Positions 45,989 through 61,065 of a stretch of 64,000 bases of DNA are shown piece after piece. How positions within the stretch are numbered: the first letter of the stretch is position 1; every line of letters begins with the position of its first letter. This stretch comes from Patescibacteria group bacterium. GTDB taxonomy: Bacteria > Patescibacteriota > Minisyncoccia > UBA6257 > 2-01-FULL-56-20. Where the stretch lies: positions 98,284 to 162,283 of the forward strand of contig JAGXBC010000001.1 of assembly GCA_018971305.1 (NCBI GenBank), written 5' to 3'. Below the pieces are notes generated by a model. It made no database searches, was not told the origin of the DNA, and saw nothing but the letters and a program-made list of their open reading frames with translations. A program made the position numbers and the translations under genes.

Positions 45989-47285
45989 GGAACTCCTCTC
46001 GCAATATATAAAGAAAACACTCTCGCCAGAAAGGAAAGAAAGGGAGAATGTTTCTGCTCGATATGAACAACTGCAAAAAATTTTCGGCGACTCAGCCGAA
46101 ATTTTTCAAATTGGTTCATACGTAAGATTTACGGCTATAAAACCAATTCACGATCTGGATGTAGTTTGGGTTTTGCCAGACGAAGTTCGCATCAAGAAAG
46201 CTATTAACCCAGAGAATTTCACTGCTAGTGGTGTTTTAGAAGAGTTGGCTCAGCAACTTGAAAATGAATACAAGAAAATTGGGGAGCGGCCATCAATTGA
46301 AGCTCAAACCCATTCCGTGGTGATTCGCTTTGGGAAAAATCTTGATTTTTCAATTGATGTGGTGCCTGCATTTAAAACGAAAGAAAAAAACGAATTTGGT
46401 TCTTTCATATATCTAGTTCCAGAAGGCGATCCCGTGCGCTGGATAAAATCAGATCCGCTCGGATATATTGAGGTTGCCAAGAAGTTAAACGAGAAAAACA
46501 ATTCCTTCAGGAAGATAACGAAATTTGTAAAAGGCTGGGAAAAATCACGTAGGAAAAATTACCCACTTATCGAACTGAAATCCTTCCATCTGGAAAACAT
46601 CGTCTCCGATCTGCTGCAGAAAAATCCTGACCTCAATTGCTACGAAGGCATCAAGAAGTTTTATCAGTCGCTCAGCGCATACCTGATTCCCCAACTCAGA
46701 GATCGCGCGGATGGCACCCGTTTTATCGATGATTATCTAAAAGACATTGACGCCTTCGATAAAAGAGAAATTGCAGAGCTTGCGCTTTTAGCTCAGAGGA
46801 CAATCTCAGAAATCGAATCATCGAGCGAAAAAGAAGACGTAATAAAGCTCAGCGAACGATTGGCGGATGCCAGTGATTTCGGCGAAGAATTTATTCAAAA
46901 ACAGGGAATCGCTTTCGTGCATAAAAAAGATTTACTTAAGTTGAGAGTTGACGGTCGAGTTACCGGAGAGGAAAGGAAGAGAGGCTCTTTCCGTGAATAT
47001 CTATTAAAAAATGCGGAGAATAGAGTTCGTGGCTTGGGAAGAAAAATTCATTATTATCTTTCCAATCCCAGAAACATTCCAGACGGTGCAGTGCTAAAAT
47101 GGAAGGTTAAAAATAGAATTAGTGACTATGCCAAGGAACATCCTCGAGGCGAAATCAGCAATCATGCCACAAAAAATGATCCGGAAGTCACGGCGTTTCG
47201 CGGGCAGCACTATGTGGATTGTTATCTCGTGAAAGATAGTAAAGTTCTAGGAATCGGGAGGCAATATTTGATTATTGAACTTTAA
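45981..47285 (+). CDS. cGAS/DncV/OAS-like nucleotidyltransferase (CD-NTase-like), paralog A.
   Basis: Pol-beta NTase catalytic motifs IGSYVRFTAIKPIHDLDVVWVL (GS...[DE]h[DE]h) and, downstream, FSIDVVPAF as the third acidic residue. A ~45-aa helical N-terminus and a large C-terminal helical domain. ~434 aa from MIEELL. Confidence 0.6.
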   Translation: MIEELLSQYIKKTLSPERKERENVSARYEQLQKIFGDSAEIFQIGSYVRFTAIKPIHDLDVVWVLPDEVRIKKAINPENFTASGVLEELAQQLENEYKKIGERPSIEAQTHSVVIRFGKNLDFSIDVVPAFKTKEKNEFGSFIYLVPEGDPVRWIKSDPLGYIEVAKKLNEKNNSFRKITKFVKGWEKSRRKNYPLIELKSFHLENIVSDLLQKNPDLNCYEGIKKFYQSLSAYLIPQLRDRADGTRFIDDYLKDIDAFDKREIAELALLAQRTISEIESSSEKEDVIKLSERLADASDFGEEFIQKQGIAFVHKKDLLKLRVDGRVTGEERKRGSFREYLLKNAENRVRGLGRKIHYYLSNPRNIPDGAVLKWKVKNRISDYAKEHPRGEISNHATKNDPEVTAFRGQHYVDCYLVKDSKVLGIGRQYLIIEL

Positions 47286-47291
47286 ACCACC

Positions 47292-48071
47292 ATGACGCAG
47301 GATCAGTATTTCGATTCGATTCTTGCGCGACACAACCCAGTTCCGCTCGGATTTTTTGGATCGCCCCTAAACATCGCTATTGATGCCTTAACTAAAGAAG
47401 CCCGAGCTTGGGGCGGGCACCACATTTCCAATATCGGTCTTTCCGGGTCATATGCGAAAGGGACCGCCATTTCCGGCCAGTCGGACGTAGATTTATTTAT
47501 TTCACTACACCACAACGTGATACAAGGAAACGTCACGCTCAAAGACGTGTATGAAAGCCTCTACAATTATCTGAAAAAATATGGCGCTCAAAAGCAAAAT
47601 GTTTCTCTGCATATAAAACATGGGAATGTCGAAATCGATCTAGTGCCCGCGGTCAGGCAGAACGTTTTGAGCAGCGACCATTCTTTGTGGAGTAATCGAA
47701 AACAAACCTGGCTGAAAACAAATGTTCTGACCCACATCAATACCATCAAATCTTCTGGGAGAAATAAGGAAATCCGAGCCACTAAAATATGGCGAAAACT
47801 TCATGGCTTAGATTTCCCTTCCCTCTACCTTGAACTTTCGGTTATCGAAGCACTTTCCAATCAGTACATCTTTTCTTTCCCTTCGCCAGCCGATAATTTT
47901 CTTAAGGTACTGGACTATTTTCAAGGTTCGTTTTTAACAGCGAAAGTTGTTGATCCCGCAAACACCAATAATGCAATTTCCGACGATCTAACTTTTCAGG
48001 AAAAGCAGAGCATAGCTCGCCAGGCAAAAATTTCCAGATCGCAACCAAACTGGAGCGGAATTATTTGGTAG
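47292..48071 (+). CDS. Minimal cGAS/OAS/SMODS-like nucleotidyltransferase, paralog B.
   Basis: LSGSYAKGTAISGQSDVDLFISL and VEIDLVPAV. The motif spacing matches paralog A. 259 aa. Confidence 0.55.
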   Translation: MTQDQYFDSILARHNPVPLGFFGSPLNIAIDALTKEARAWGGHHISNIGLSGSYAKGTAISGQSDVDLFISLHHNVIQGNVTLKDVYESLYNYLKKYGAQKQNVSLHIKHGNVEIDLVPAVRQNVLSSDHSLWSNRKQTWLKTNVLTHINTIKSSGRNKEIRATKIWRKLHGLDFPSLYLELSVIEALSNQYIFSFPSPADNFLKVLDYFQGSFLTAKVVDPANTNNAISDDLTFQEKQSIARQAKISRSQPNWSGIIW

Positions 48072-48102: not shown

Positions 48103-49452
48103 CTATGAATCCTTTGTTTTCGCGAGCGTCAGTTCTTTATCCTTCAACACGAGTTTGCTCTTCAGTGATTCCAAAATCTCACGTTTCTCAATAAGCGTCC
48201 CGGATTTTAGGATATGCTTCGCGTATGCCCGCAGGTTGAATTCTTGATCTTTCGTCTCATCCTCTTCTTCGCGGATACCCAGGATGTTTTTATTGAAGCT
48301 CCGGTGCCGCTCGATCTCATCCCGCAGTTTCTCCTTGATTGCAAGCTCGTTCAGGTCAATCGTATCCATAATGTCGACGAGCTGATGGAGCACGCCATCT
48401 TCCTTGATGTAGGTGTTCTTGCAGTGCCGATCTTTGCTCCGCGAGCAGAGATAATAGACGTGGCGATTCGTGCCGCCGCCCTTGAGCTTCTTGAATTTCT
48501 CCATGGCAGTGATGCCCGATCCACAGGGACCACACGATATCAGATTGGTGAATGCCCACTCCTTTGCTTCACCACGCACATATTTATCCCGTGTGACGCG
48601 CTCGCGCGTTTTCTCGAAGAGTTCTCTTGTAATGAGGGCCTTATGCTGCCCGGTATACCAGTTGCCGCTCTTTCTCGGATATTCGAAGATGCCGTAGTAA
48701 AAAGTGTTTTCAAGGATAGTATAAATATTTCCTATTGAGAGATACTTGCCGTTTTTCGTTTTGAAATTTAGATCGAATCTGAGCCAATGGTAGAGCTTCA
48801 CGCCCGACCATTGTTCGTTCCCGATCTTCTCGAACATCTGCCGGATGACAGGAGCTCGTTCCGGATCGACGAGCAGCTGACACTTCCGATCCAGGCGCTT
48901 TTCCGACAAGTATCCTGTTGGCGTCGATGACGGCCATAGCCCCATCTCACAGCGCGTCCGCAGTCCTCGTTTCACATTTTCCGATTTGTTGTCGTTTTCG
49001 AGTTTCGCTTGGGAGCAAAGGATCATCAACAGGAATTTCTCGTTCGGCGAATTCTTGAAATTCTGCGTGTACGTCCTTATCTCTATGAGAAGCTTCTGAT
49101 CCATAAGGTCAACCAAGCTGCCGAGATCTCCAGCGTTTCTGCTTAACCGATCTGCTGCCCACGTGAGGATGCCCGTGTACCTTCCGCTCCGTAGGTCACG
49201 GATGATGTCGTTGAACACGGGGCGGGTGCCCGAGTCTTTCGCCGAGTGGGCCTCGCGCCGGATGTCCACGATCTCGAGCGTATCCCGTTCGGCGATCCGC
49301 AACATCTCCTTTACCTGTGAATCGATAGAAAGGGCTTGCTTCTCATCCTGTTCGGTTGATTTCCTCGCGTAGAGCACGTATTTGACCTTTTCCGGCTGCT
49401 GGACGCTCGTGGGGGCCCCAGCTGCCATCAGCCCCATGGTTTGGTTGGTCAT
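48103..49452 (-). CDS. Large serine recombinase (integrase).
   Basis: 449 aa. N-terminal resolvase catalytic domain (YARKSTEQDEKQALSIDSQ with the Ser nucleophile, LTWAADRLSRN), a recombinase domain, and a zinc-ribbon C-x2-C...C-x2-C region. Confidence 0.8.
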   Translation of the reverse strand: MTNQTMGLMAAGAPTSVQQPEKVKYVLYARKSTEQDEKQALSIDSQVKEMLRIAERDTLEIVDIRREAHSAKDSGTRPVFNDIIRDLRSGRYTGILTWAADRLSRNAGDLGSLVDLMDQKLLIEIRTYTQNFKNSPNEKFLLMILCSQAKLENDNKSENVKRGLRTRCEMGLWPSSTPTGYLSEKRLDRKCQLLVDPERAPVIRQMFEKIGNEQWSGVKLYHWLRFDLNFKTKNGKYLSIGNIYTILENTFYYGIFEYPRKSGNWYTGQHKALITRELFEKTRERVTRDKYVRGEAKEWAFTNLISCGPCGSGITAMEKFKKLKGGGTNRHVYYLCSRSKDRHCKNTYIKEDGVLHQLVDIMDTIDLNELAIKEKLRDEIERHRSFNKNILGIREEEDETKDQEFNLRAYAKHILKSGTLIEKREILESLKSKLVLKDKELTLAKTKDS

Positions 49453-49574: not shown

Positions 49575-50291
49575 TTAGACCATTTTTTGCATTAGCAATT
49601 GTGTCGCAATGTTGAAATATAAATATTCCTCCTTGGATAGTGCTTCGTTGTGCTGAATCCTATTACGATACTCTGCTAATTCCGCAAGTTTTCCGGCAAT
49701 CACAAATGTGCTAGGAAATCTACCTCTAAACAAATCACGATTATTCTTGTCGCCCATAATATGGGAGAAATCTTTAATTCCTGCCGCTGAAAAAAGCTCT
49801 TCTGGGTGGCCACCTGGCTTCCACGAAGCATGCCTCGATTTCCAATATTGCGTTTTAAGTATTTCGTATGTCGTTTCATCCAGATGCTTCTCCCAACTAC
49901 TGCCGTAGACATCTTCAAAAACATCGGCGTACAATTTTCTCAACGCTTCTTCGAGTAATCGAATGTTCTTTCTTGCGGTAGTCAACCTTGTTAGCTCAAA
50001 AGGATCTATCTGTATAGCAGCCTTTTTTCGCAAGACAATCGGTTCGTCTCCAGGTAGCCTTTTCCCCCAAAAGACATCGCCATCTTCATCAATCTCCTTT
50101 TTTAAGACACCCTTTCGATACATAGATTTCAAAGCGATAAGCACAGCGCCCTTCTTCTTATCTCCGGCCTTCGCTATGCCATGTTTTTTCCTCGCAATGG
50201 CAGAGAGGAGGGTTTCTTGAGAAACCCATTCCTTATCAAACATCTCTATCTTAATCAATTCTTGATAGTTAGTAGCCATTATACGGTCCAC
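49575..50291 (-). CDS. HEPN-domain protein (Swt1/Abi-like).
   Basis: 238 aa with a C-terminal R-x4-H motif (RNRIQHNE), the HEPN RNase signature. It overlaps the upstream gene by 13 nt. Confidence 0.5.
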   Translation of the reverse strand: MDRIMATNYQELIKIEMFDKEWVSQETLLSAIARKKHGIAKAGDKKKGAVLIALKSMYRKGVLKKEIDEDGDVFWGKRLPGDEPIVLRKKAAIQIDPFELTRLTTARKNIRLLEEALRKLYADVFEDVYGSSWEKHLDETTYEILKTQYWKSRHASWKPGGHPEELFSAAGIKDFSHIMGDKNNRDLFRGRFPSTFVIAGKLAELAEYRNRIQHNEALSKEEYLYFNIATQLLMQKMV

Positions 50292-50791
50292 GCGAATTTT
50301 TTGATTCGACCTGGGTGTTTAACAGATGACGCGACATATAGATATCTAAAACCCCTAGATCCAGGGCACACGCTCTTGCAAAGATTGACCGAATCTAGCA
50401 GCTTTCGCTCACCCTTTTTCCCTTCCTTATAGGTTGTTACAAAAAGACGGAACTCGGCGATGCCAACCGTGAGCTTCCGAAAATCTTTTAATATATTATC
50501 ATCGTCATTCTGCCTTTCAATCTCGGAGATTAATTTTAATCCCTTTAGATCCCGCCAGTTTTTCCCGAGATCAGCCCAACAAAGATCGAAAAGCCATTCA
50601 CCACTATCGGTATTAAGTTTTTTGGGACCGGATGCAAAAACTTTGTAGTCAAGTTTGTGCCCTAGATTGGTCAAAGACTTCTTTATTGAAAAAGTCCAGG
50701 CCGCCGAGCTTTCCCTATTCTCGTTTTTGCGTCCAGCATGCCGAATCACAGCTACCATTTTATCTTCTATTGGGAAAGAATTTGTAGGCAT
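50279..50791 (-). CDS. Hypothetical protein, co-transcribed partner of the HEPN protein.
   Basis: 170-aa ORF that overlaps the HEPN gene start. Confidence 0.4.
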   Translation of the reverse strand: MPTNSFPIEDKMVAVIRHAGRKNENRESSAAWTFSIKKSLTNLGHKLDYKVFASGPKKLNTDSGEWLFDLCWADLGKNWRDLKGLKLISEIERQNDDDNILKDFRKLTVGIAEFRLFVTTYKEGKKGERKLLDSVNLCKSVCPGSRGFRYLYVASSVKHPGRIKKFAWTV

Positions 50792-50803: not shown

Positions 50804-51199
50804 TTATAAAAGCCGTGCCGCTGCTTGCACGCTTTTGTCAAAGTTTTTATCGAACTGATGTTCCCAAAATCTGGTTACCCGCCAACCCTTACTTCTCAAT
50901 GCTCGGTTTACGATTTTCGCTCGCTCCTTATTGCCGCGAATTTTTTTCTGCCAATAGCTCCGTTGTGATTTTGGCATTCTACAGTGCCACCTACAGCCGT
51001 GCCAAAAGCACGAATCGAGAAAAATAACCGACTTTTTTCTCTTGGAAACGATGTCCGGCTTTCCAATTAAACTCGCGTGTTGCTGAAACGACTTTCCTTG
51101 TTTCTTCAGGGCTTTGACGATCCCTCTTTCGAGTCTAGTATTCTCGGAACGAATGAGAGACATCACCCCTGAGCGTTGCTTCTTAGTTAGGGTGTCCAT
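50804..51199 (-). CDS. vsr: Very-short-patch repair endonuclease.
   Basis: 131 aa with the Vsr signature IFLDSCFWHGC and a downstream His. Confidence 0.8.
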   Translation of the reverse strand: MDTLTKKQRSGVMSLIRSENTRLERGIVKALKKQGKSFQQHASLIGKPDIVSKRKKSVIFLDSCFWHGCRWHCRMPKSQRSYWQKKIRGNKERAKIVNRALRSKGWRVTRFWEHQFDKNFDKSVQAAARLL

Positions 51200-51202
51200 A
51201 AA

Positions 51203-51712
51203 TTAGGTGCTAAAAACAGTTTTCGTCTGCGAAATGAGATCTTGACTCAAGATGAGATACCAAGCTCGCATCCTCTTTTGCCACTTCCGAAATTTCAGGA
51301 ATTGATCCCATGTAATCTCGATGACTTTCTTGGGTTGGTAGGTCTTATCGATCAAGACAACGATAACGTATTCAAATTTTTTCTCAGGCTGCTGTTCGTC
51401 TTGATCCCCGCAACCATAGAACACACCCGTGACATTCCCTGGTTCAGAGATCGTCTTAACGCTGTAGCGCTCTCCCTTTCTGCTCAACGCATCCACGTTT
51501 TGCGTTCCTTCAGGAGCCGCCTGGAGTTTCGGCAAACTCGGCACTTCATTGTAAATTTTTATTGCCAAAAATTCTCCTCGCTCGCCGACGATGTTCCGCG
51601 TTCTCACTAATCCGCGCTCTTTCAATTTAAGTCCTATATAGGGATAGATGGTCCACATCTCCTCATCGGATAGATTATTAATCTCCCTTTCGAGATCTTC
51701 AATTTTAGGCAT
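51203..51712 (-). CDS. Hypothetical protein between dcm and vsr (possible nuclease or specificity component). The start is set at an internal ATG to give an 8-nt overlap with the dcm stop.
   Basis: The ORF is open from 51847, but upstream of 51712 it would overlap dcm by 142 nt. Confidence 0.4.
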   Translation of the reverse strand: MPKIEDLEREINNLSDEEMWTIYPYIGLKLKERGLVRTRNIVGERGEFLAIKIYNEVPSLPKLQAAPEGTQNVDALSRKGERYSVKTISEPGNVTGVFYGCGDQDEQQPEKKFEYVIVVLIDKTYQPKKVIEITWDQFLKFRKWQKRMRAWYLILSQDLISQTKTVFST

Positions 51713-52934
51713 TGGATTGTCGTTTCCGCTTCGCGGCCAAAACGCGTTCTCCGAAATGTTCTGCAAAGACTTTTGCCAATAAAGGCGGCACCGCGTTCCC
51801 AACGTGTTTTTGTTGCGTATCCATCTTTCCGTAAAAAACGAAGTCATCGTCGAATGATTGAAAGCGAGCCGCTTCTCTCACTGTGATAGCGCGATTGCTT
51901 TCGTAATGCAGGAAGCGGCCGGATCCCGGATTCAGAAAGTGAGCGGTGATAGTTTGGGCTATACCGTCGCGATGCAAACGGCCATAAGCTTGACTGAAAT
52001 ATTCCTGATCTCGCTTTCGATCAAAGCGGCTATTCTTGGGTAAATCTTTATTACTCGACCCCTCTTCGATTTTGTTGATTTTTATCAAGAAGTCTTCTCC
52101 GTGGGATCGTGCCACGTGGTTACAAAGAATCTTTGCTCGTTGCCTGCGGGATGCTTGGTAATCCGTAAATGGGGCGGCGGCATACCCGGTCGCTTCTTGG
52201 CCAGCCTCAATACGCGGTAAGTCGCCGATGGCATCCTCCACAGAAATATACGGCGTTAAAATAGTTCCGAAATCATCCAAGGCAACTTCTTCCAAAATGT
52301 CCTTCGCAAAAGGCAATTTCTTATATCGTAACGGAGGAAAGTCGAGCGGTACGTCGGCAGCATACTTATTTTGAACCGCTGCTATGAGTAAGCGCTTTCT
52401 GAGCTGTGGAACTCCGTAATCATGCGCGATGACCACCTGCATATTTGAGCTATAGCCCATTTTTTCAAGCTCCTCTCGGATCTCGACGATAAATTTGCCC
52501 TTTGCGTATGATGCTGCATTTGGGACGTTTTCGATAAGGACGAAGATGGGTTTCAGCAATCCGACAAAGCGCAAGAATTCTTTCATCAACCTATTGCGCG
52601 GATCGTTGATAATGCGGTCGGATCTATTGGCGGTGAGCGCGGAGAATCCTTGGCATGGCGGTCCACCAACTAGGAAATCGAGTTCTGCCCCGCCGTTTAG
52701 CAGAGCGTTCTTGCGCAATGTTTTCTCATCAAGTTTTCCGATATCGGCCCAGAGGTAAGGCACTGATGGCCTATTTCTCTTGAAGGTAGTGATTGCGTCA
52801 GCATCATGATCGACCAATAAGACTGGTTGGAGTCCCCAATCTTTCGGTAAAAGCGCTTTGCAAAATCCTTCCGTTATACCTCCGACGCCAGCGAATAGGT
52901 CTATGAACGTAAGGGTATGCGCTTCTCTTTTCAT
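51705..52934 (-). CDS. dcm: DNA (cytosine-5)-methyltransferase.
   Basis: 409 aa. Motif I is DLFAGVGG, motif IV is GGPPCQGFS, motif VI is ENV. Confidence 0.9.
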   Translation of the reverse strand: MKREAHTLTFIDLFAGVGGITEGFCKALLPKDWGLQPVLLVDHDADAITTFKRNRPSVPYLWADIGKLDEKTLRKNALLNGGAELDFLVGGPPCQGFSALTANRSDRIINDPRNRLMKEFLRFVGLLKPIFVLIENVPNAASYAKGKFIVEIREELEKMGYSSNMQVVIAHDYGVPQLRKRLLIAAVQNKYAADVPLDFPPLRYKKLPFAKDILEEVALDDFGTILTPYISVEDAIGDLPRIEAGQEATGYAAAPFTDYQASRRQRAKILCNHVARSHGEDFLIKINKIEEGSSNKDLPKNSRFDRKRDQEYFSQAYGRLHRDGIAQTITAHFLNPGSGRFLHYESNRAITVREAARFQSFDDDFVFYGKMDTQQKHVGNAVPPLLAKVFAEHFGERVLAAKRKRQSNA

Positions 52935-54820
52935 AGTTGATTGTTTGGTTCTATTACTTCGTTACTTTTAGATGCCGCCGCAGCTTTCGCGGTTATTTTT
53001 CCGTTAGAGACAAATTTTTCATGGAAAAGAAATGGCTCGAGTTCCTTCGTCGCAGAGTCATGCAATCGCTTGGAAACCTCGTCGAATTTATTGTCGATCT
53101 CGTCGGCGGTTAATTGGGTTCCCCGTTTTTCCATCTCGTGCACGGTTTGCTTCAAAATGATGTCCACGTATCTTTGAAACATATACTCGCGCCACCGAAC
53201 ATGTTCCGTCCCGTAATCCTCGCGGATTTTATGCGCGAGCGGGGCCTGAGTATTAATCCAATACACATTGTGTTCGTAGTCGGCACGGCGCTGATAAACA
53301 AGAGGGTGGCGTGCGTCGCAGTTTACCGTATTGCCCGGACTAAGCGGATCATCGTCAGAGTTAGAAAGGAGAACAAGCGGAAATTTATGGCCTTTGCTTT
53401 TTTGATCTCCAGAACCACTTCCTTCGGTCGTCGATCCGCCATCGCCCTCAGTCTCTCCCTTGCCCATCCCCGCTCCTTGTCCTTCTCGCAGTCCGCCCGC
53501 ATCTCCTGGGTTTGTGCCCGCAAAGATTTCTCCATAAACTTGCGACATAAAACCATTTTTCCATCGGTTCAGAAAATCGTTAAATATCGAGGTGTTCTTA
53601 AGATCAATCTGTTGCTGCTCGAGCTTGGTCCGCTCAACCATTTTATCGGTTAGATCGTTTATTCGTTCGCAAATCCACCAAAGTAGAGCGTCTGTAAGTT
53701 CGGTTTTGGCGAGATGTTCTCGGTCATTCAGCACCAGGTCATTATCAGGGTCCTCTAGAATGGGACACTCACACTCGCCGTATACAAATTCGGTCATTTC
53801 GGAGTTCCGCAAAGCCCCTCCCAGCTCGCTGATCTTATATGACGCGATAATGCCAATATCTTTGCTTTTAAAGTTGATGCAATTGAGCGCGGCGCGATCC
53901 CCGTATCGGTTAAAAGGTTCCTCTGAGGTGAAGAGGGTCAATCCTCCCTTCGGAAATTTTTCGTTAGCTAATGCCACATATTCCTTGCCATACGGCAATT
54001 GCTCTGGAATTTCAAAGGTTACGGGATCTTCGAATCCAAACTTCGGCTTTATAACCTCCGGCTCGAGACGCATGAGATCGCCATTGTCCAGCACACCGTA
54101 CACCAATTTCGTTTGCACGATATTTCGCGCCTGAGGATGAACCCGCAAGCGGTACAGTAAGTTGTTATATTTTCTCATCCCGACATTTTCCGGCTTGGTG
54201 CCACTAATCACAGTGAAGCGGATGTCCTTAAGACGGAATCGTTCCTGAAGCGCGTCCGTTTCGGGGAGTTTCAAAAGCTGGGGGATCAAATCAGCGATGC
54301 CAGCTATCTTGAATGCTTCTTCCGGTTTTACTTTTTTATCTTCAAATCCATTTAAGAAGCCATAGTCTTTGTCCTCGTCGAATCCAAAGATGTTCAGATG
54401 ACCATTGCGATACGTGATGAATCGGCTCGTCTGAAACATCTGGCGCATATAGAATTTTCCGCCGTTTCCATGTCCGCCGTACGTTTTCAACTCTTTCAGC
54501 CCCTGCTTTGCAGCCATGCGATCGAACCAGCGAGCGAAATTATCGTTGATGACCTTGTGTGTTGTTCCTGAAAAATCTATACATTCGAAACGAATTGGGT
54601 CTGTTTTGGTCTTGCTTCGGAACCGAACCACAATGACTTGCTCGGAATCTGGAATGTGAATTTTCTGCGCGGCCCCGTCCCTTAAGTAAGCGTCAACAGA
54701 GTTTTTGAGCCATTCCGCGAGCCCCTTTACATGATCGAATCTGAAGCTCTTGCCAAACATGTCAAGCGCGCTCTTCGCGTCTATGACGGCTTCGATCTTA
54801 TTGATCTTGGGATTTTTCAT
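52931..54820 (-). CDS. GHKL-superfamily (histidine-kinase/MutL/MORC-like) ATPase with a long C-terminal region.
   Basis: An N-box-like AEWLKNSVDAY, a G1/G2-like NGDLM...G.G, and a C-terminal Gly/acidic low-complexity linker. ~629 aa from an internal ATG. The ORF is open to 54883, but that would overlap the upstream gene by 62 nt. Confidence 0.55.
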   Translation of the reverse strand: MKNPKINKIEAVIDAKSALDMFGKSFRFDHVKGLAEWLKNSVDAYLRDGAAQKIHIPDSEQVIVVRFRSKTKTDPIRFECIDFSGTTHKVINDNFARWFDRMAAKQGLKELKTYGGHGNGGKFYMRQMFQTSRFITYRNGHLNIFGFDEDKDYGFLNGFEDKKVKPEEAFKIAGIADLIPQLLKLPETDALQERFRLKDIRFTVISGTKPENVGMRKYNNLLYRLRVHPQARNIVQTKLVYGVLDNGDLMRLEPEVIKPKFGFEDPVTFEIPEQLPYGKEYVALANEKFPKGGLTLFTSEEPFNRYGDRAALNCINFKSKDIGIIASYKISELGGALRNSEMTEFVYGECECPILEDPDNDLVLNDREHLAKTELTDALLWWICERINDLTDKMVERTKLEQQQIDLKNTSIFNDFLNRWKNGFMSQVYGEIFAGTNPGDAGGLREGQGAGMGKGETEGDGGSTTEGSGSGDQKSKGHKFPLVLLSNSDDDPLSPGNTVNCDARHPLVYQRRADYEHNVYWINTQAPLAHKIREDYGTEHVRWREYMFQRYVDIILKQTVHEMEKRGTQLTADEIDNKFDEVSKRLHDSATKELEPFLFHEKFVSNGKITAKAAAASKSNEVIEPNNQL

Positions 54821-54821
54821 G

Positions 54822-55424
54822 TTATTTTTGGGGGATGATAGTTTTAAATTTTTCATCAGTAAGTAAATATTTATTAAGATCATTCAAGATTTTAAACCGA
54901 GGATTGCCCGAAAAGATGCGTCGAGCGTTTTCGATCGCGGAGCTGATGACCGCAATACGACCCAAAAATTCGTTTTTGCCAGTTCGAACCGTCACGCTGT
55001 AAAACGCGTAGATGTCGCTATCCAAAATTTTCTCCTTTTCGCCGCCTTCATAAAGCTTGAAGGCGTCTGATTGAAATAATTTATCGGCTTCTGCCTGCTC
55101 GTCTCTGCCGAGCCGCTCTGTTCGAGTTTTCTCCACCTGGTCGCCGCTAATTTTTGAGACGAGAGGCCCAATGTAAGCAAGGCCATGTTCAGTAAGCGAA
55201 AAGAATTTATTTGCCGTTCTAATAAAACCCTTGCTTTTCAAAGGTCCATAAAGTGGCTTATGAATATCCGAAGAATCGGGGTATTCGTAACCGCGCAGAC
55301 TGAAATCCTCTGGAAATTTTTTCCACACCGCGACAACGATGTCCTCGTATTTAAGGGGCTTCGTCGATCCCTGCGATAGGTCGTACATAGCAACTAGTAT
55401 TTTGTCGCGAACTGATAACGCCAT
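54822..55424 (-). CDS. Hypothetical protein (possible wHTH), first large gene of the GHKL-Dcm-Vsr cassette.
   Basis: 200-aa ORF with translational coupling to the GHKL gene. Confidence 0.4.
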   Translation of the reverse strand: MALSVRDKILVAMYDLSQGSTKPLKYEDIVVAVWKKFPEDFSLRGYEYPDSSDIHKPLYGPLKSKGFIRTANKFFSLTEHGLAYIGPLVSKISGDQVEKTRTERLGRDEQAEADKLFQSDAFKLYEGGEKEKILDSDIYAFYSVTVRTGKNEFLGRIAVISSAIENARRIFSGNPRFKILNDLNKYLLTDEKFKTIIPQK

Positions 55425-55429
55425 TTGGG

Positions 55430-55675
55430 TTATAGTTTAAAGTCTTTGTTTTTAGGATAGTGAAATTTCGCTTTGACGTCTTTTACACGTCGATCGATTT
55501 CGGAAAATATTTTGTTGATATCTTCTTCGGTGTATTCATATGCGCTGCGATTAGAACAGTTTCCAAGAACTTTCAACCGCCGGAGAATGGCGTTGGTTCT
55601 AAGAGTCGCAAGCCTTTTGAACCTTTCTCTCTTCGCTTCTTTCGGGAAATTTTTTTCCATATATTCTATATACAA
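55430..55675 (-). CDS. Small hypothetical basic protein.
   Basis: 81-aa ORF, 5 nt upstream of the next gene on the same strand. Confidence 0.35.
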   Translation of the reverse strand: MYIEYMEKNFPKEAKRERFKRLATLRTNAILRRLKVLGNCSNRSAYEYTEEDINKIFSEIDRRVKDVKAKFHYPKNKDFKL

Positions 55676-55895
55676 TAGGATACCTTTATTTGCAAGGGCG
55701 ACACATATGTACTTATAGTAATGCGCTATTTCAAAAAGTCAAGTTTGCGTTGGGGATAAACATCCCGATGCCGGATTCCATCGTCACATTGATTTTTCAT
55801 AATAACTCATTTTCCGAGCACTTTCATAGATTGAATATTAGATCTCACAACTTAAAACTCCTCTTCGCGAGGAGCTTTAAGTTTTTCTTTTTCTC

Positions 55896-56477: not shown

Positions 56478-56663
56478 AGTATTAGCTGTTTTTATTTCGA
56501 CCTTTCGGGATTTGCTATTTTCTTCCCAAAACAATTGATGACGCCTGGGCGGCGGAAGTCCATAGCCTCAAAACCGCCGCGCTGGCTTCACGAATCGCGC
56601 CAGACTGACCACTCCAGCTTATCATAATATCTAAAATTTGGATATTGGTTTTCTGGATATAGC

Positions 56664-56894
56664 GTGAGAGGTATGGTGAAATCAATCCAGACGAAGGAAT
56701 ATGCCCTGCTCGTGGAACGACTGCGAAAGGCGAGGATAGGAGCCGGGCTTACCCAGGCGCAAATCGCCAAGAAGATCGGACGACCGCAGTCCCATATTTC
56801 GAATATTGAATCGGGGCAGCAACGGATTGACGTAGTCGAGTTGAAACGGTTCGCGGAGTTGTACGGGAAAAACATTAAATTCTTCATAAAGTAA
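56664..56894 (+). CDS. XRE-family helix-turn-helix transcriptional regulator.
   Basis: ...LTQAQIAKKIGRPQSHISNIESGQQ... is a classic Cro/C1 HTH. 76 aa. Confidence 0.75.
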   Translation: MRGMVKSIQTKEYALLVERLRKARIGAGLTQAQIAKKIGRPQSHISNIESGQQRIDVVELKRFAELYGKNIKFFIK

Positions 56895-56962
56895 GCAAGG
56901 TGGTCTCCAATGAAAAAAGAGCATCTCGTAGATGCTCTTTTTTCTACCGCTGCGGTTCCGTC

Positions 56963-57685
56963 CTATTTCGGCCGCGGTCCTTGCCACGATGGCCGATAAC
57001 CATCTTTCGGCACCTCGAGGCGCGGAACGGGCGCAAAGACCTGCGGGGTCACTGTGATCGTACCGCTGTCGCTCGGCGGGTTCGTTGGGTTCGCCCTCGG
57101 CAGGAGATCGATTGGCTTAGTCGTGTCATTCGAACGTGGCGCAGGCGGCGCCGATTCGGTTGCCGGTAGCTCCTGCGATGACGTGCCCGAGGGATCGCTC
57201 TTTGCGCCGCCCGCGATGATCCCGCGCAACGCCGCCGGAATCGGTTTCGCCTTCGGCGCCGGGATGCTGATCCTCGGCAATGCCGTGCCTGATGGCGATG
57301 ACGATTCCTGCCTGCCCGCTTCCGCTTGGGCATCAGCGGGAGGCTTCGCGCCTTGGCCGGCACTTGCGCTTGCAGAGGCCGACTGCCGCAAGAGCAGCGG
57401 GTTCACTTCGTCCCGCATCTCCCATGTCGGCATGCCAATGGCGAGGGCGATGTCGTTGTAGGGAATATCCACGGTAAAAGGGTCCGGAGCGATATCCGTC
57501 TTCGGGTCGGTGCTGACCGCTTGGATGTCGAGGTGCCTCGTCGGCGGTTCTTGCGCCGTTGTTGTAACCTCCGGTTGCTCCGCTTCCGCTTCACTTGCGG
57601 CAACTGCCTGAGCTTTACCGCCTATGAGCCATTCGCCGAACCGAACAAAGAAGCGTCCGGCCAAATTCAATATGTTGTTAAACAT
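56963..57685 (-). CDS. Hypothetical Ala/Pro-rich protein at the distal end of the GC-rich phage-like segment.
   Basis: 240-aa ORF in a ~60% GC region. Low-complexity sequence. Confidence 0.4.
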   Translation of the reverse strand: MFNNILNLAGRFFVRFGEWLIGGKAQAVAASEAEAEQPEVTTTAQEPPTRHLDIQAVSTDPKTDIAPDPFTVDIPYNDIALAIGMPTWEMRDEVNPLLLRQSASASASAGQGAKPPADAQAEAGRQESSSPSGTALPRISIPAPKAKPIPAALRGIIAGGAKSDPSGTSSQELPATESAPPAPRSNDTTKPIDLLPRANPTNPPSDSGTITVTPQVFAPVPRLEVPKDGYRPSWQGPRPK

Positions 57686-57699
57686 GATTGAAAATATAA

Positions 57700-59322
57700 T
57701 TAGGTTTGGTCGACCTTTGGTTCCGGTAATGGTGGCGAAGAAGTGGGGCGCGAGCCAAAGCCTTGCGCGGAAGCATTGTCCAGGAGATCAATGGGATCAA
57801 CGGAATAACTTTCGGCGGGCTTGGAGCTGCGGTTTTTGTCGCCGCAGACGGTTTCAATTTCGCCGGTATCCAGGTCAAGCGTCCACATGCCCGCGAATTG
57901 CACGTCCTGGCCGATCGTGGCGTGGGCGAGAATCGTAAACGCGTCCACTTGATCGTCGTAGCGTTCCACGCCGAATCCCACGAGCTGCTGCTCAAGGGTT
58001 TCCGTCCGCGGCTTTTGGGGAAAAAGAATCCTGCCGATGCGGATGAGGCCCGCCACCGTGGAAAGCCGGGCGCGTTTGTCGGTTGTGGCCGGGACCCCGA
58101 TCACCGGGAGCCCCATGGCGGCGAGCCGCTCAATGAGCATCTGCTGGTACTGCACCTTCTCAATGCGCAGTTCAACAGCGCCGTAGAGCGCGGCGTATTT
58201 CTCATAGAGCGCCTTCAGGGCGTTCACGACGTCTTCGGAGTTCATGCGCCGGTTCACCGTCTCTATGATGTAGGCACGGAACGCGTCCCCGTGGCCCGCG
58301 AAAAGGCCCACCGCGATCCCGGTATAGTCCGCGCTGCTTTTCGTGCTGATCGCGGGGTCGCAGGCGATCACCACTTTCAGGATCTCCTTCGCGGGAAGTT
58401 CGCTCCAACGCTGGAACCAGTCCGGGAAGACGAGCCGGTCCTCGTTCGCAATAATGCGGAGACCGTACTCGCGTTCCCAGGTCGCCTCGTCGCCGATTTT
58501 CTTTTTGAACGCGTCAAGCGATTCCGCCGTGGGGAATTTTTCCGGCCACTGGCAGACGCCTTCGTCGTCCACGAGCGGAAAGCGGCGGAAGACGCCCCTG
58601 CGGTCGCCTTTCACAATCTGTTCCTTGAGGCGGCCGAGGAGCGAATATTCATTCAGGAAATTCCCGAGGACGTACACCTTCGTTTCGGGCGTGCCGAGGG
58701 GAATGATCTCGGAGTTAAAGAATTCATACGTTTGATCGCGCGATTCCTTCACGCGGGTGTTCTGCAAATTTTCGAGGTCGTCACAGATAATCAGGTCTGG
58801 GCGGTAATGCCGGTAGCGCAGTCCGCGCACCGCCTGCTCCGAGGAGAGCGCGACGATCCGCGCGTCAAATTTCTTGAATGTCATCCCGAGCGCGGTGCGT
58901 TCGTCGCCGTCCATGTCGATCGGTCCGAAATCGTTGCGGAGCAGCGGCGATGCGAGCGCCATGCGGATGTTTGAGAAGTGCTGTTTTGACTGGTGCAGGG
59001 TTTCACTGATAATCGTGATAAAGTGCGCCCGGCCGCTCAGAATTGACCACAGGGAGAGCGAGGTGTTGAAGATGGCGGACTTCCCGCTGTTGCGAAAACC
59101 CGCCACGATGCAGAGGTCGCTCGCATTCGCTTCCGTGAGCGCGAACATTTCCTTGTGGAATTGTCCCATCGGGTCCTTGAGGTAGTCCGCCAAATAGATG
59201 TTGAAGAAGAGCGGGTGCGACCACTGGCCGAGCTTGCGCCGCAAAAGGCGGCTCTTCCGAATGACATCAATGAAGAAATTGAACTTGTCTGCGTTGTTGC
59301 TGGGGGCTGGTAAAAGATTCAT
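57700..59322 (-). CDS. Phage terminase large subunit.
   Basis: 540 aa. Walker A-like AGFRNSGKS, Walker B LIICDDLEN, and a C-terminal RNaseH-like nuclease region. Directly downstream of a small-terminase-like gene. Confidence 0.7.
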   Translation of the reverse strand: MNLLPAPSNNADKFNFFIDVIRKSRLLRRKLGQWSHPLFFNIYLADYLKDPMGQFHKEMFALTEANASDLCIVAGFRNSGKSAIFNTSLSLWSILSGRAHFITIISETLHQSKQHFSNIRMALASPLLRNDFGPIDMDGDERTALGMTFKKFDARIVALSSEQAVRGLRYRHYRPDLIICDDLENLQNTRVKESRDQTYEFFNSEIIPLGTPETKVYVLGNFLNEYSLLGRLKEQIVKGDRRGVFRRFPLVDDEGVCQWPEKFPTAESLDAFKKKIGDEATWEREYGLRIIANEDRLVFPDWFQRWSELPAKEILKVVIACDPAISTKSSADYTGIAVGLFAGHGDAFRAYIIETVNRRMNSEDVVNALKALYEKYAALYGAVELRIEKVQYQQMLIERLAAMGLPVIGVPATTDKRARLSTVAGLIRIGRILFPQKPRTETLEQQLVGFGVERYDDQVDAFTILAHATIGQDVQFAGMWTLDLDTGEIETVCGDKNRSSKPAESYSVDPIDLLDNASAQGFGSRPTSSPPLPEPKVDQT

Positions 59323-59326
59323 GTTT

Positions 59327-59731
59327 TTATTTTTGGATCATGAGGTTTATGTAATTTGCGGGGAATCCTGCTAAGCGGAGCGCTTCGCGAAGGAGTTCGA
59401 CTTCTTCGGGAGTCAACTCTTCGCGCAGATCAACGGTCCCTGAAAGCTCCAGCCGGTTGCGGTACTCGTCCTTGTTGTTCTTGAGCCAAAAAATGGCTGC
59501 ATTCAGTTTCCCTTGTTTGATCGCCTGGATAATTTGACTCTCCGCCGCGTCGTTCACGAGGTTCTTGCCGTCGAGCTGCGCTTCGTCGGCCTCCTTCGCG
59601 AACGCGGGGTCCTCCTGCTTGCGGCGGTAGAACGTCCGCCTGCTGATGCCCGCCTTCGCGCACGCCGACTCTATGACCGGCGACCTCCGCAGCGCGTCGA
59701 GAATGATTTGTTTTTCTTCGTCGCGGGTCAT
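59327..59731 (-). CDS. Phage terminase small subunit-like DNA-binding protein. The start is set at an internal ATG, and the ORF is open to 59869.
   Basis: MTRDEEKQIILDALRR...GISRRTFYRRKQ is an HTH. It abuts terL, and its start overlaps the stop of the upstream gene at 59731. Confidence 0.55.
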   Translation of the reverse strand: MTRDEEKQIILDALRRSPVIESACAKAGISRRTFYRRKQEDPAFAKEADEAQLDGKNLVNDAAESQIIQAIKQGKLNAAIFWLKNNKDEYRNRLELSGTVDLREELTPEEVELLREALRLAGFPANYINLMIQK

Positions 59732-61065
59732 TAGAGTGTTACGGCCTTGCGGCCCGTTAATTTTTCCCACCGCCGTATCGCGACCGTAAGATACACCGGC
59801 GATTTTTCCATCATGAAGCAGCGGCGCTTCATCTTGGTCGCGGCGATCAGCGTGCTCCCCGATCCGCAAAACGGTTCAAGGACAAGATCGCCGCGATGCG
59901 TGAGCACTTTCAAATAGGGAATGAGCAGGGGCAGGGGCTTGGTCCCGAAGACGATGTTTTGCCCGCTGTGCTTCGCGTCGTCCGCGACGTGCTCGATGTA
60001 ATCGGTCGGACAAATCTTTTTTCCTTTTTCGTAACTTTCCCACGCCGGTTTTCCGGAGGTCATGAAGAGCGCGTTTTCGTATTCGTTCTGCAGCAGTTCG
60101 TCCTCCTCCGGTTCGAGATTGAGCGCGACGTCGCCGCCGGTGCCTACGACGGCAATGTCGGTTTTATTAAAGAACTTATATTTCGCCGAGAAATTTTGCA
60201 CTCTGTTCGGCACATGCCAGGTGATCGTGTTGCGATAGCGCCAGTGCTTTTCCATGGCGTTCCATATCGTCCGCAAGTTTTTTGGATTTTCAAAAACTAT
60301 TATCGAGAAATCCGGCTTCTGCACTTTCGCCACGGCATCCATCCACCGCTCGGTAAAGTCCGGCGGCAGTTCGTCCGTCCCCAAATACTTCCGGTCCTTC
60401 CTGTAGCCAAACCCTTCGGTAGGCTTGCCGTGCCGCTTGCCGCCGCGCAAATAGTGGAGGATGTAGGGCGGATCGGTAAAACACATGTCGGCCCTCTCGC
60501 CGCCCATGAGCTTCAGCATGTCCGCTTCTATGGTTGAGTCGCCGCACATGGCGCGGCTGCCATCCAGGTCGTACACGTCGCCCTTCTGTATTTCGATGGA
60601 GGCGATGTCCAATTTCTCAAGCTCGCGCTGCAGGTCAAAGACCTCGTGGTTGTCCTCAACCTGAAAGATGTCGTCCAGCTCCTCGCTCGTGAAGCCCAGG
60701 TTTTTCAGAAAACCCTCGTCGAACTCCGCGAGCGCGGCGAAGTCAAACTCGCCGACGTTTTTTGAAAGGCGAATACAGAGTTCTTTTTCGCGCTCAAGGT
60801 CAGGGATATTGACGTAGACGCAAGGAACTTTTTCATATCCCAGTTTCCGATACGCCTTGAGGCGCTGGTGGCCGCCGATCAGAACGTTCTTCCGCTGCGG
60901 CGCGGAGTTCAGGATGAGAGGGTCCACGATGCCGAACCCGACGATGGACTGCTCCAGGTCGGCGAGCCCTTTCGCGTCTATCGTTTTGGGGTTGTACTCG
61001 TTTTCGCGGATGTTCGCGATGGGAACGTATTCAATGTGCAGTTTTTCTTCTAGGATTTTGTCCAT
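59731..61065 (-). CDS. ParB-like nuclease domain fused to an N6-adenine/N4-cytosine DNA methyltransferase.
   Basis: The N-terminus has a ParB/Srx fold (...GGHQRLKA...). The MTase has motif IV TDPPY and motif I FCGSGST. 444 aa. Confidence 0.75.
   Translation of the reverse strand: MDKILEEKLHIEYVPIANIRENEYNPKTIDAKGLADLEQSIVGFGIVDPLILNSAPQRKNVLIGGHQRLKAYRKLGYEKVPCVYVNIPDLEREKELCIRLSKNVGEFDFAALAEFDEGFLKNLGFTSEELDDIFQVEDNHEVFDLQRELEKLDIASIEIQKGDVYDLDGSRAMCGDSTIEADMLKLMGGERADMCFTDPPYILHYLRGGKRHGKPTEGFGYRKDRKYLGTDELPPDFTERWMDAVAKVQKPDFSIIVFENPKNLRTIWNAMEKHWRYRNTITWHVPNRVQNFSAKYKFFNKTDIAVVGTGGDVALNLEPEEDELLQNEYENALFMTSGKPAWESYEKGKKICPTDYIEHVADDAKHSGQNIVFGTKPLPLLIPYLKVLTHRGDLVLEPFCGSGSTLIAATKMKRRCFMMEKSPVYLTVAIRRWEKLTGRKAVTL

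Follow-up and report, generated by a model that had tools for sequence, protein, structure and literature searches.

Within the stretch of DNA analyzed here (the window, 64,000 nucleotides of a Patescibacteria contig), a cytosine methylase and a Vsr endonuclease stand beside a large GHKL ATPase in a compact minus-strand cassette, which raises the question of whether these genes form one functional system and what such a system would do. The cassette (50804-55675) belongs to the accessory part of a prophage-like island, at a site flanked by a large serine recombinase and a terminase. Every gene described in the original prediction is found, in minus-strand orientation, at the coordinates it gave, and the total is six (A, B, C, dcm, E and vsr) rather than five, gene A having been overlooked.

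Organization of the cassette

The genes and associated sites are as follows.

Gene A: 55430..55675 (-), 81 aa from a TTG start, or more likely 76 aa from the ATG at 55660
Gene B: 54822..55424 (-), 200 aa, winged-helix protein with a helical C-terminal domain, obligate partner of C
Gene C: 52931..54820 (-), 629-aa GHKL ATPase; the longest ORF reaches 54883
Gene D (dcm): 51705..52934 (-), C5 cytosine DNA methyltransferase, Dcm type
Gene E: 51203..51712 (-), 169 aa, BisI-family PD-(D/E)XK restriction endonuclease homolog
Gene F (vsr): 50804..51199 (-), Vsr very-short-patch-repair T:G mismatch endonuclease
Gene G: 50279-50791 (-), co-directional, after vsr
Gene H: 49575-50291 (-), HEPN protein, co-directional, after G
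Promoter-like site upstream of A: 55715..55742 (-), TTGACT-16-TACTAT, from a consensus scan, likely operon start
Weak terminator-like hairpin at the vsr end: 50814..50831 (-), 5-bp stem with 4 GC pairs, followed by GCTTTTATAA, possible operon end
Hairpin, probable terminator of the upstream DUF4352 gene: about 55858-55874

The promoter-like and terminator-like sites are pattern matches only, neither kind being enriched relative to shuffled sequence. Strong homologs were found for every gene of the cassette, and therefore none is a chance ORF. The genes are co-directional and tightly packed; the 4-8 nt overlaps expected between them are found at C/dcm (4 nt) and dcm/E (8 nt) and at no other junction, with gaps of 5 nt at A/B, 1 nt at B/C and 3 nt at E/vsr. 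The B/C gap is counted from the 629-aa start of C at 54820, which agrees with NCBI protein P0001.

The window operon is a joining of three blocks: the A-B-C module, the Dcm and Vsr pair, and gene E between dcm and vsr. The proposal that the five genes first described are one conserved unit is not sustained, as E is found only in the nearest clade and the Dcm-(E)-Vsr, A/GHKL/partner and G-HEPN blocks reassort in related elements.

The pairing of Dcm with Vsr, also part of that proposal, is genuine. The gene D product matches PF00145 (DNA_methylase; 3.6e-54, 184.8 bits) and TIGR00675 (1.2e-48), and C5-methylase motifs I, IV, VI, VIII and X are all present (FAGVGG, GPPCQGFS, ENV, QLRKR and GNAVPP). 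Among PDB sequences it matches the catalytic domains of DNMT1 best, and it is nearer to these than to M.HaeIII or M.HhaI. The gene F product matches TIGR00632 at 110.2 bits (cut-off 97.85) and PF03852 at 3.4e-20 (72.1 bits, cut-off 27).

Gene E is a BisI-family nuclease homolog

Gene E had been described as encoding an uncharacterized protein of 170 aa, and the restriction or effector component of the cassette as not recognizable. Both descriptions can be replaced: on sequence evidence, the 169-aa product is a BisI-family PD-(D/E)XK endonuclease homolog with its predicted catalytic residues intact. It matches the PADLOC mREase_II model at 2.1e-55, and a family profile built from 47 homologs matches Eco15I in the PDB at 3.4e-15 (profile positions 6-159) and NhoI at 1.9e-8, a full-length relationship. 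Residues E47, V73-D74 and S84-V85-K86 align with the catalytic E, AD/WD and QIK/QVK of Eco15I and NhoI, with Ser in place of Gln, and conservation of E47, D74 and K86 across the family reaches 90% or more. R147-M148 aligns with the H-V of NhoI and Eco15I, which corresponds to the (H/R)(V/I/T/M) motif of the internal-methyl pocket (PMC11347163); this motif is weak evidence because several E relatives carry T-M or G-I.

The window's nearest relatives carry E at 73% identity, and it is absent from all 80 genome loci in which the module was found; its insertion between dcm and vsr is specific to this clade. Elsewhere, E homologs are usually flanked by a C5-methyltransferase and/or Vsr, with B-C in only 3-4 of 80 E-homolog loci. 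Such an association could be that of an ordinary Type II restriction-modification system, with Dcm as the methylase, E as its cognate methylation-sensitive endonuclease, Vsr alongside and A-B-C as unrelated passengers. The M-R-V gene order with its 8-nt overlap is classic, and BisI enzymes are structurally PvuII-like, with two homologs that cut unmodified DNA (PMC4926085, PMC11347163). However, among 32 methyltransferases encoded no more than 1.5 kb from an E homolog the median pairwise identity is 31%, against a median of 63% for their E proteins, and methylases so diverse beside E proteins so conserved do not fit matched Dcm and E specificities. Loci with the window-type Dcm mostly lack E, and the Dcm lineage beside which E is inserted otherwise travels with B-C and without E, as in locus L001. 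The R-M dipeptide is also retained at the methyl-pocket position, and on balance a Type II arrangement appears very unlikely. A methylase beside a methyl-dependent nuclease requires non-overlapping specificities. The habitual position of this subfamily between diverse C5-methylases and Vsr bears on how methyl-dependent restriction coexists with methylases.

Gene C encodes a GHKL ATPase of an unnamed family

Gene C encodes a GHKL ATPase with intact ATPase motifs, of a family that is unnamed in Pfam, NCBIfam or PADLOC. The protein consists of a Bergerat fold and transducer (residues ~1-370), a long helix (374-433), a disordered Gly-rich linker (436-475) and a C-terminal domain (480-600). A Bergerat fold followed by a transducer is the arrangement of the MutL/GyrB/Hsp90/MORC branch, and the full order of ATPase, transducer, coiled coil, flexible linker and C-terminal domain is the MutL/Hsp90/MORC layout of a dimer-type GHKL protein. 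In an alignment of 36 diverse C homologs, the previously noted N-box-like sequence AEWLKNSVDAY forms part of an ExxxNxxDA motif in which E36, N40, D43 and A44 are invariant. The motif II residues D82-F-x-G85, the ATP lid G115GHGNGGK122 and T136 (the motif IV Thr) are likewise invariant, and the second Gly of DxGxG is not kept; motifs II-IV are assigned by position and by sub-threshold HATPase_c_3 alignments at residues 32-136. The closest of the low-rmsd structural neighbors are MORC and SMCHD1, with 281-291 residues aligned at 3.6-4.0 Å, and a Foldseek search of BFVD returned generic GHKL proteins only (giant-virus Hsp90, Topo II and rIIA; TM <=0.41).

At the sequence level, the window C protein does not match the curated GHKL models PF02518 and PF13589 even at E<=10, and PF13589 matches 17 of 36 relatives at 12-16 bits, all below the cut-off of 25. 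The C family profile retrieved only Hsp90-like N-terminal domains from the PDB, at E of about 0.5, and searches with the A, B and C sequences of Pfam, NCBIfam, PADLOC models and, by phmmer, the PDB gave no match up to E<=10. None of the three proteins has a recognized nuclease or other effector domain, the 480-600 domain of C included, and longer B and C homologs contain no domain fusions, their added length consisting of N-terminal extensions or longer Gly-rich linkers. A weak Pfam Phage_gp49 signal was seen in 8 of the 36 C homologs and was absent from 10 members rescanned singly.

Several known GHKL classes were considered for C. The sensor histidine kinases and canonical MutL had been raised with the original prediction as identities that would overturn it; C has neither a DHp/HisKA domain, a nearby response regulator nor the features of a kinase-type CA domain, and neither a MutL C-terminal dimerization/endonuclease domain nor a MutS partner. 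It also does not correspond to the CapK/CapS pair, a small anti-sigma-type GHKL Ser kinase with a STAS-domain repressor (PMC13373217), nor to MORC sensu stricto, as it lacks both the sequence signature specific to MORC and the SF-II helicase that usually accompanies MORC in prokaryotic operons. The features of paraMORC2-5 were sought among the invariant columns of the C alignment and the Pfam matches, where no ExxxH in S5 (paraMORC2), RE-fold nuclease C-terminal domain (paraMORC3), TIR domain (paraMORC4) or HxH C-terminal domain (paraMORC5) was found.

Partner genes and conservation of the A-B-C module

A fold search had been suggested for the 200-aa B protein, and a lack of conserved homologs in equivalent operons had been named as a point that would count against the prediction. 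B has a MarR-like winged helix and a helical C-terminal domain, without a nuclease fold. Across 80 genome loci, drawn from about ten phyla, its gene immediately precedes C in 74-75. The module occurs in Patescibacteria, Verrucomicrobiota, Acidobacteriota, Planctomycetota, Myxococcota, Ignavibacteriota, Nitrospirota and Actinomycetota. In the full-flank set, made up of the 50 of these 80 loci whose sequence extends 3 kb or more to each side, 46 loci have B, 40 an HTH partner, 35 (70%) Dcm and 23 (46%) Vsr.

Gene A encodes a small two-helix protein with homologs upstream of B-C in 31-33 of the 80 loci, sharing the motif RFKRLAxxRTNxVLxxLxxLGNCSNRxxYxYTExExxKIF. At least three further GHKL-motif proteins, unrelated to C, have an A gene ahead of them as well, and two of these adjoin Dcm-Vsr. 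Gene A is a conserved leader gene of GHKL modules and is part of the system. A second gene order, A-C-B, was found on one Ensifer plasmid and four viral contigs; tblastn of C against 72,556 plasmids gave one distant match, on an Ensifer plasmid, and tblastn against 50,697 phage genomes gave none.

The multi-HTH partner proteins of relatives carry HARE-HTH, Mrr_N, sigma-70 region 4, RpoA-CTD or DnaA C-terminal HTH domains, of which HARE-HTH and Mrr_N are modified-DNA reader domains. No A-like region was detected in the X3 partner proteins with the A profile. Among 83 operon neighbors, no nuclease, helicase or non-C5 methylase is constantly linked to the module. Frequent neighbors are defense and mobile-element genes (Shedu, Gabija/OLD-like ATPases, AIPR, VapBC and Fic), and serine recombinases are located near the module in 9 of the 50 full-flank loci.

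Coupling to cytosine methylation

The original prediction placed C among the prokaryotic GHKL ATPases whose genes lie inside operons resembling restriction-modification systems (Iyer et al. 2008, PMC2292703), and a C5-methylase/Vsr link that recurs across phyla in several arrangements fits this. In the first, dcm is directly downstream of C, with 41-53% identity to the window Dcm, in other phyla; in the others it is divergent upstream of A or convergent after X5 (25-35% identity). Vsr is present in 23 of the 35 full-flank loci that have Dcm, sometimes as a Dcm::Vsr fusion. Linkage in at least three arrangements, together with these fusions, argues for repeated recruitment rather than shared descent. 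The coupling is strong and also dispensable: of the 50 full-flank loci, 15 have B-C and no Dcm, 12 have B-C and a partner yet no methylase, and the distant A-C-B loci have neither Dcm nor Vsr. The methylase-free loci of these last two kinds indicate that methylation is not obligatory for A-B-C.

The neighborhood could alternatively be mosaic cargo, in which A-B-C, Dcm-(E)-Vsr and G-HEPN are independent units gathered in one accessory hotspot of related Patescibacteria prophages, their tight spacing reflecting operon compaction. In loci L172 and L173, blocks of these kinds are arranged differently and accompany different GHKL proteins (Dcm-Vsr-A-GHKL'-..-G and Dcm-E-Vsr-A-GHKL''-..-G-HEPN), and the Dcm-free loci and the scarcity of B-C beside E homologs point the same way. 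Because the three blocks reassort in related prophage-like elements, a common cargo hotspot could account in part for their being neighbors in the window. As a full explanation this is unlikely, however, as in 70% of full-flank loci no more than 4.5 kb separates dcm from C, a linkage that spans about ten phyla and several orientations and lineages, and dcm often overlaps or nearly abuts its neighbor, likewise beside the non-homologous A-led GHKL genes; the linkage appears to be far above the background density of dcm.

A role in repair is a live alternative for A-B-C, since MutL stimulates Vsr. C would then be a portable MutL analogue and B a lesion or DNA-end adaptor, together stimulating and coordinating Vsr nicking at Dcm-born T:G mismatches and so limiting the mutagenic cost of a mobile methylase. 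The gene distribution makes this improbable: half of the loci lack Vsr, 30% of the full-flank loci lack Dcm, and the distant A-C-B loci lack both. The multi-HTH partners, the toxin-antitoxin and defense neighbors and the mobile-element context also misfit pure repair, and no MutL_C or MutS-like component was found.

Proposed function

We tentatively favor, at somewhat less than even confidence, the view that A-B-C is a new paraMORC-like ATPase module that is genomically coupled to cytosine methylation and probably serves methylation-linked defense. This view is favored by the fold and motifs of C, the conserved synteny with Dcm, the reader domains of partner proteins, the defense and mobile-element neighbors, the BisI-family identity of E and the anti-phage precedent of GHKL-Shedu. 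It is weakened by the absence of a recognized effector domain and of any PADLOC match for A, B and C, by the methylase-free loci, by the reassortment of the blocks and by the need for non-overlapping Dcm and E specificities. A-B-C would be the ATP-driven sensing and restricting part of such a system, in the paraMORC tradition. Dcm would place 5-methylcytosine on the DNA of the element and its host as a self mark, and B would tether the C dimer to DNA, a task that a multi-HTH reader protein may share in most relatives. ATP binding would then shut C as a clamp on DNA without the proper mark, and the closed clamp may halt replication or transcription of the DNA held or recruit nucleases. Vsr would mend T:G mismatches arising from 5mC deamination, and E, in the window clade, would add cutting of heavily 5mC-modified invader DNA.

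The sigma-70 region 4, RpoA-CTD and DnaA C-terminal HTH domains of the partners, the MarR-like winged helix of B and the structural proximity of C to MORC and SMCHD1 are also consistent with a regulatory or epigenetic role, in which A-B-C (with X3, X5 or X9) would bind DNA and spend ATP on governing whether the mobile element or neighboring genes are transcribed or silenced, in the manner of MORC or CapK/CapS, and would not attack invaders directly; immune operons preceded by regulator pairs have been described (PMC13373217). We give this reading little credence. A bolder version of the clamp model, which we rate just as low, is that A-B-C is a nuclease-free immune or silencing machine: a MORC/SMCHD1-like, ATP-gated clamp, loaded by winged-helix and HTH reader subunits, that would entrap and compact DNA according to its 5-methylcytosine state and would be a counterpart, possibly an antecedent, of eukaryotic MORC-DNA methyltransferase silencing; the nearness of the linked methylase to DNMT1 is notable here. 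In a variant of this idea, which concerns relatives outside the window, the RpoA-CTD, sigma-70 region 4 and DnaA C-terminal domains of the partners could be decoys that sense phage take-over factors.

Apart from its function, the module defines a further GHKL family, found across many phyla, without a match in domain or defense databases; its coupling to C5-methylation is strong but non-obligatory, it has no recognized nuclease of its own, and its small leader A is common to other GHKL families. If defensive, it would extend the known methylation-linked systems by a new one whose mode of action is unusual and may rely on a clamp, and would offer an experimentally tractable bacterial model for the reading of DNA methylation by MORC-type ATPases.

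Comparison with known systems

The cassette resembles BREX-like methylase-linked, nuclease-free systems by analogy only, in combining a self-marking methylase with ATPase and DNA-binding parts and no obvious core nuclease; unlike BREX, it has no PglX, PglZ, BrxC or BrxL homologs, and its methylase is of the C5 rather than the N6-adenine type. With the MutL-Vsr-Dcm very-short-patch repair system of E. coli it shares Dcm, Vsr and a GHKL-transducer ATPase with a flexible linker and a C-terminal domain, but it has no MutL C-terminal domain or MutS, and the C module also occurs without Vsr or Dcm and on mobile elements. E resembles the 5mC-dependent Type IIM enzymes BisI, Eco15I and NhoI in size (169 aa), full-length profile, the Glu / xD / (Q/S)xK residues and R-M at the putative pocket. 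Its subfamily differs in the Ser for Gln of the (D/E)XK-equivalent triplet and in usually adjoining a C5-methyltransferase and Vsr, whereas most BisI homologs have been reported without a companion methylase (PMC4926085, PMC11347163).

GHKL ATPases inside restriction-modification operons were described and predicted by Iyer, Abhiman and Aravind in 2008 (PMC2292703), and MORC and paraMORC1-5 of that survey are like C in their GHKL and transducer domains, intact ATP motifs and sporadic, laterally mobile distribution. The neighborhoods are also alike in their C5-methylases, Vsr, HNH nucleases and AIPR (L169), and distinct GHKL families swap in equivalent operons. The position of A ahead of other GHKL genes parallels the 'functional displacement' described there (PMC2292703). 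The C module is unlike MORC and paraMORC in lacking an SF-II helicase, a PF13589 match at threshold and the paraMORC2-5 features, in having obligatory partners of its own (winged-helix B and small A), and in belonging mostly to uncultured lineages that were unavailable in 2008. To our knowledge, the GHKL-Shedu branch is the only one of these ATPases to have been tested since then. Its representative VcSduA (formerly paraMORC3) is experimentally anti-phage (PMC12137116) and consists of one polypeptide that ends in a DUF4263 PD-(D/E)XK nuclease, whereas C is methylase-linked, with two partner genes and no recognizable nuclease. The two are alike in being defense-island GHKL ATPases with a predicted ATP-controlled dimeric clamp.

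Organization of the cassette and its surroundings

The original prediction placed five genes, joined by overlaps of 4-8 nt, between 50804 and 55675. Tight packing is indeed found across this interval, but the genes number six, all on the minus strand:

55430-55675, minus strand: gene A, small helical protein, 81 aa from TTG
54822-55424, minus strand: gene B, winged-helix protein, 200 aa
52931-54820, minus strand: gene C, GHKL ATPase, 629 aa
51705-52934, minus strand: gene D, Dcm, 409 aa
51203-51712, minus strand: gene E, BisI-family nuclease, 169 aa
50804-51199, minus strand: gene F, Vsr, 131 aa

The junctions from A to F measure +5, +1, −4, −8 and +3 nt, so that the predicted overlaps hold for C/D (4 nt) and D/E (8 nt) and the remaining junctions are short gaps. 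An ATG at 55660 is the more likely start of gene A, yielding a 76 aa product, and the same call is made on an identical contig. The longest ORF of gene C reaches 54883; the start listed here agrees with that of NCBI protein P0001. Candidate operon limits are a promoter-like site 5' of A and a weak hairpin where F ends; both are only suggestions, since sites of either kind show no enrichment relative to shuffled sequence.

Gene D encodes a C5-methyltransferase (PF00145, 3.6e-54) with all catalytic motifs visible in its translation, and gene F a Vsr protein (TIGR00632, 110 bits, exceeding the cut-off), as originally predicted; both are ordinary members of their families. Among proteins of solved structure, D is closest in sequence to the catalytic domains of eukaryotic DNMT1 (E 7e-35, 124 bits), with M.HaeIII (2.5e-25) and M.HhaI (1.6e-16) ranked behind them.

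The setting of the cassette is that of a mobile element or defence island, with type IV pilus genes upstream of the island and the following features around it:

45452-48071, plus strand: CBASS-like trio
48103-49452, minus strand: large serine recombinase
49575-50791, minus strand: genes G (170 aa) and H (HEPN_Swt1 protein)
57700-59322, minus strand: terminase large subunit
59731-61065, minus strand: ParB_N and N6/N4 methylase fusion

Genes G and H lie directly 3' of F, co-directional with it and coupled to each other by a 1-nt overlap. G has no Pfam domain and only 18 homologs in a collection of 5.8 billion proteins, and in related elements (loci L116, L172 and L173) it also adjoins HEPN genes and/or GHKL modules led by gene A; H weakly matches the PADLOC candidate PDC-M34B. 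G and H may constitute a separate two-gene toxin or defence module. Past them and the serine recombinase are two SMODS cyclases on the opposite strand. They complete a trio that begins with a 178-aa protein bearing two hydrophobic helices at its N-terminus; the first cyclase (445 aa) combines SMODS with AGS_C, and the second SMODS protein has 259 aa. Despite its resemblance to CBASS, the trio scored under the cut-off of the NCBIfam CBASS models (100 vs 200 bits). On the other side of the island, with the terminase and ParB-methylase genes, G+C is markedly higher, rising from ~0.44 to ~0.60 on entry (about 56500-61000). Possible sources of this jump are prophage mosaicism, recent acquisition and a join in the assembly.

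Conservation of the ATPase and its partners

Gene C yielded no Pfam, NCBIfam, PADLOC or PDB sequence match, even at E≤10, and its homologs, at least 913 in number, are all annotated as hypothetical, none with a Pfam domain. By motif and fold, C is nevertheless a member of the GHKL superfamily, as had been predicted: the four Bergerat motifs (E36xxxN40xxD43A, D82xxG85, G115GHGNGGK and T136) are intact in C and invariant in 36 diverse members. In C, the ATPase and transducer are followed by a helix of 60 residues and a disordered, Gly-rich linker, with a C-terminal domain of ~120 residues beyond it. This layout recalls MutL and Hsp90, both constitutive C-terminal dimers in which N-terminal closure is gated by ATP. 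An invariant N-D-R-E stretch (residues 365-368) may resemble the catalytic loop of the Hsp90 middle domain. In membership tests C came out as neither a conventional histidine kinase nor MutL, the two identities the original prediction had guarded against, nor as CapK; membership in MORC or any of paraMORC2-5 was not demonstrable.

A scan of one genome per species identified 188 stretches containing relatives of C, the best 80 of which, from Patescibacteria, Verrucomicrobiota, Acidobacteriota, Planctomycetota, Myxococcota, Ignavibacteriota, Nitrospirota, Actinomycetota and others, were used for synteny analysis. The concern that the uncharacterized ORFs might lack conserved homologs in equivalent operons does not apply to B, which is located immediately 5' of C in 74-75 of these loci. 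Of the 50 loci flanked on each side by 3 kb or more, B is found in 46, a multi-HTH partner in 40, a C5-methylase within 4.5 kb in 35 and Vsr in 23 (every time with a methylase). These counts depend on our own ORF calling and clustering of the 80 loci, many of which derive from metagenome-assembled genomes. The association of A, B and C is obligate, and their coupling to Dcm and Vsr is frequent but non-obligatory; in Ignavibacteria loci, VapBC lies upstream and HNH downstream, and no methylase is present. Where Dcm is directly 3' of C it is 41-53% identical to the Dcm of the window; at other loci it is divergent from A, or convergent after the multi-HTH protein X5, and 25-35% identical, and a Dcm::Vsr fusion represents a further arrangement. 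These varied settings favor repeated recruitment of the methylase. That A-B-C is a portable MutL-like helper of Vsr repair is quite unlikely. E, G and H were not found in the 80 loci. The remaining neighbors are a mixed set that takes in Shedu, OLD/Gabija-like ATPases, AIPR, VapBC, Fic, HNH and trypsin-like peptidases, with housekeeping genes beyond; defence islands and mobile elements typically show such a pattern.

In most B-C systems there is also a large partner assembled from DNA-binding domains of transcription or replication proteins (L004, L068, L041 and 58 other loci), none of which is present in the window. Type X3 contains two RpoA-CTD domains, sigma-70 region 4 and a weak HARE-HTH; X5 the DnaA C-terminal HTH, sigma-70 region 4 and a Cys-rich tail; and X9 SeqA_N and Mrr_N. 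These proteins could read modified DNA or act as decoys for the take-over proteins of phages. That the system serves in regulation or silencing appears improbable.

Gene A is part of the system: its homologs are found 5' of B-C in 31-33 of the 80 loci, and in a distant branch the order is A-C'-B'. That branch is represented on a conjugative plasmid of Ensifer and four viral contigs from IMG/VR, in each case without a methylase close by. A is also found 5' of large proteins that bear GHKL motifs (ExxxNxxDA, DxxxxG, GxxGxGK) but are not detectably related to C. Each of them has an additional partner protein after it, which makes "A + GHKL ATPase + third protein" a modular theme. At least three other such A-led proteins were observed (L172:2025-5026, L173:1374-4993, L174:5977-8829, L178:5983-9722), each with its own partner of ~230-290 aa and one also with a DUF6339 protein. 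A may be the hallmark of a larger GHKL-module superfamily that has yet to be described. Two of these loci are prophage-like elements in which the A-led module adjoins Dcm-Vsr or Dcm-E-Vsr and G, and the association with C5-methylase and Vsr thus outlasts replacement of the ATPase family, the displacement argument by which Iyer et al. defined the paraMORCs (PMC2292703). At the same loci Dcm-(E)-Vsr, the A-led module and G-HEPN shift in order relative to each other, so that the operon in the window is a composite. This reordering favors the view that the genes are mosaic cargo with no joint function, a view that we nevertheless consider unlikely.

A BisI-family nuclease in the cassette

The ~170-aa protein that was originally described as unknown, gp E, can be assigned. 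It matches the PADLOC "Type II methyl-directed restriction enzyme" models (2e-55), and a profile built from 47 homologs aligns over the full length of Eco15I (3.4e-15) and NhoI (1.9e-8), both known from crystal structures. The catalytic Glu, "xD" and xK triplet are retained (E47, D74, S84-V-K86), and an R-M dipeptide falls where BisI-family enzymes have their (H/R)(V/I/T/M) methyl-pocket motif (PMC11347163). On these sequence grounds E is assigned as a new member of the BisI family of PD-(D/E)XK nucleases, and is most probably 5mC-dependent. In the relatives nearest to C (86% identity) the order is A-B-C-Dcm-E'-Vsr, with E' 73% identical to E, and the next (68% identity, L001) has A-B-C-Dcm-Vsr without E, indicating that E is a clade-specific insertion between dcm and vsr.

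Among 80 metagenomic loci encoding homologs of E (51-77% identity), a C5-methylase is present in 42 and Vsr in 26, usually abutting and on the same strand, and B-C in only 3-4. This BisI subfamily (L088-L167) is thus habitually accompanied by diverse C5-methylases and Vsr, forming a recurrent module independent of GHKL genes, in contrast to the published account, in which most BisI homologs have no companion methylase (PMC4926085). The pairing of methylase and nuclease could be read as an ordinary Type II restriction-modification system, with A-B-C as passengers; however, the E-linked methylases are diverse (median mutual identity 31%) and the E proteins conserved (median 63%), which argues against E as a cognate Type IIP enzyme and makes such a system very improbable.

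A possible defence function

Our preferred, still tentative, reading is that A-B-C, Dcm, Vsr and E form a methylation-linked defence system, with roles inferred for its components. A-B-C would provide ATP-driven DNA sensing and the restricting part, Dcm would provide the self-mark and Vsr damage control; E, in this clade only, would be an added nuclease against heavily 5mC-modified DNA. No recognized nuclease is present in A-B-C, for which BREX-type systems may serve as a precedent. By analogy, a clamp of the MORC/MutL type is a possible mode of action, and C is similar to the paraMORC class in both architecture and context.
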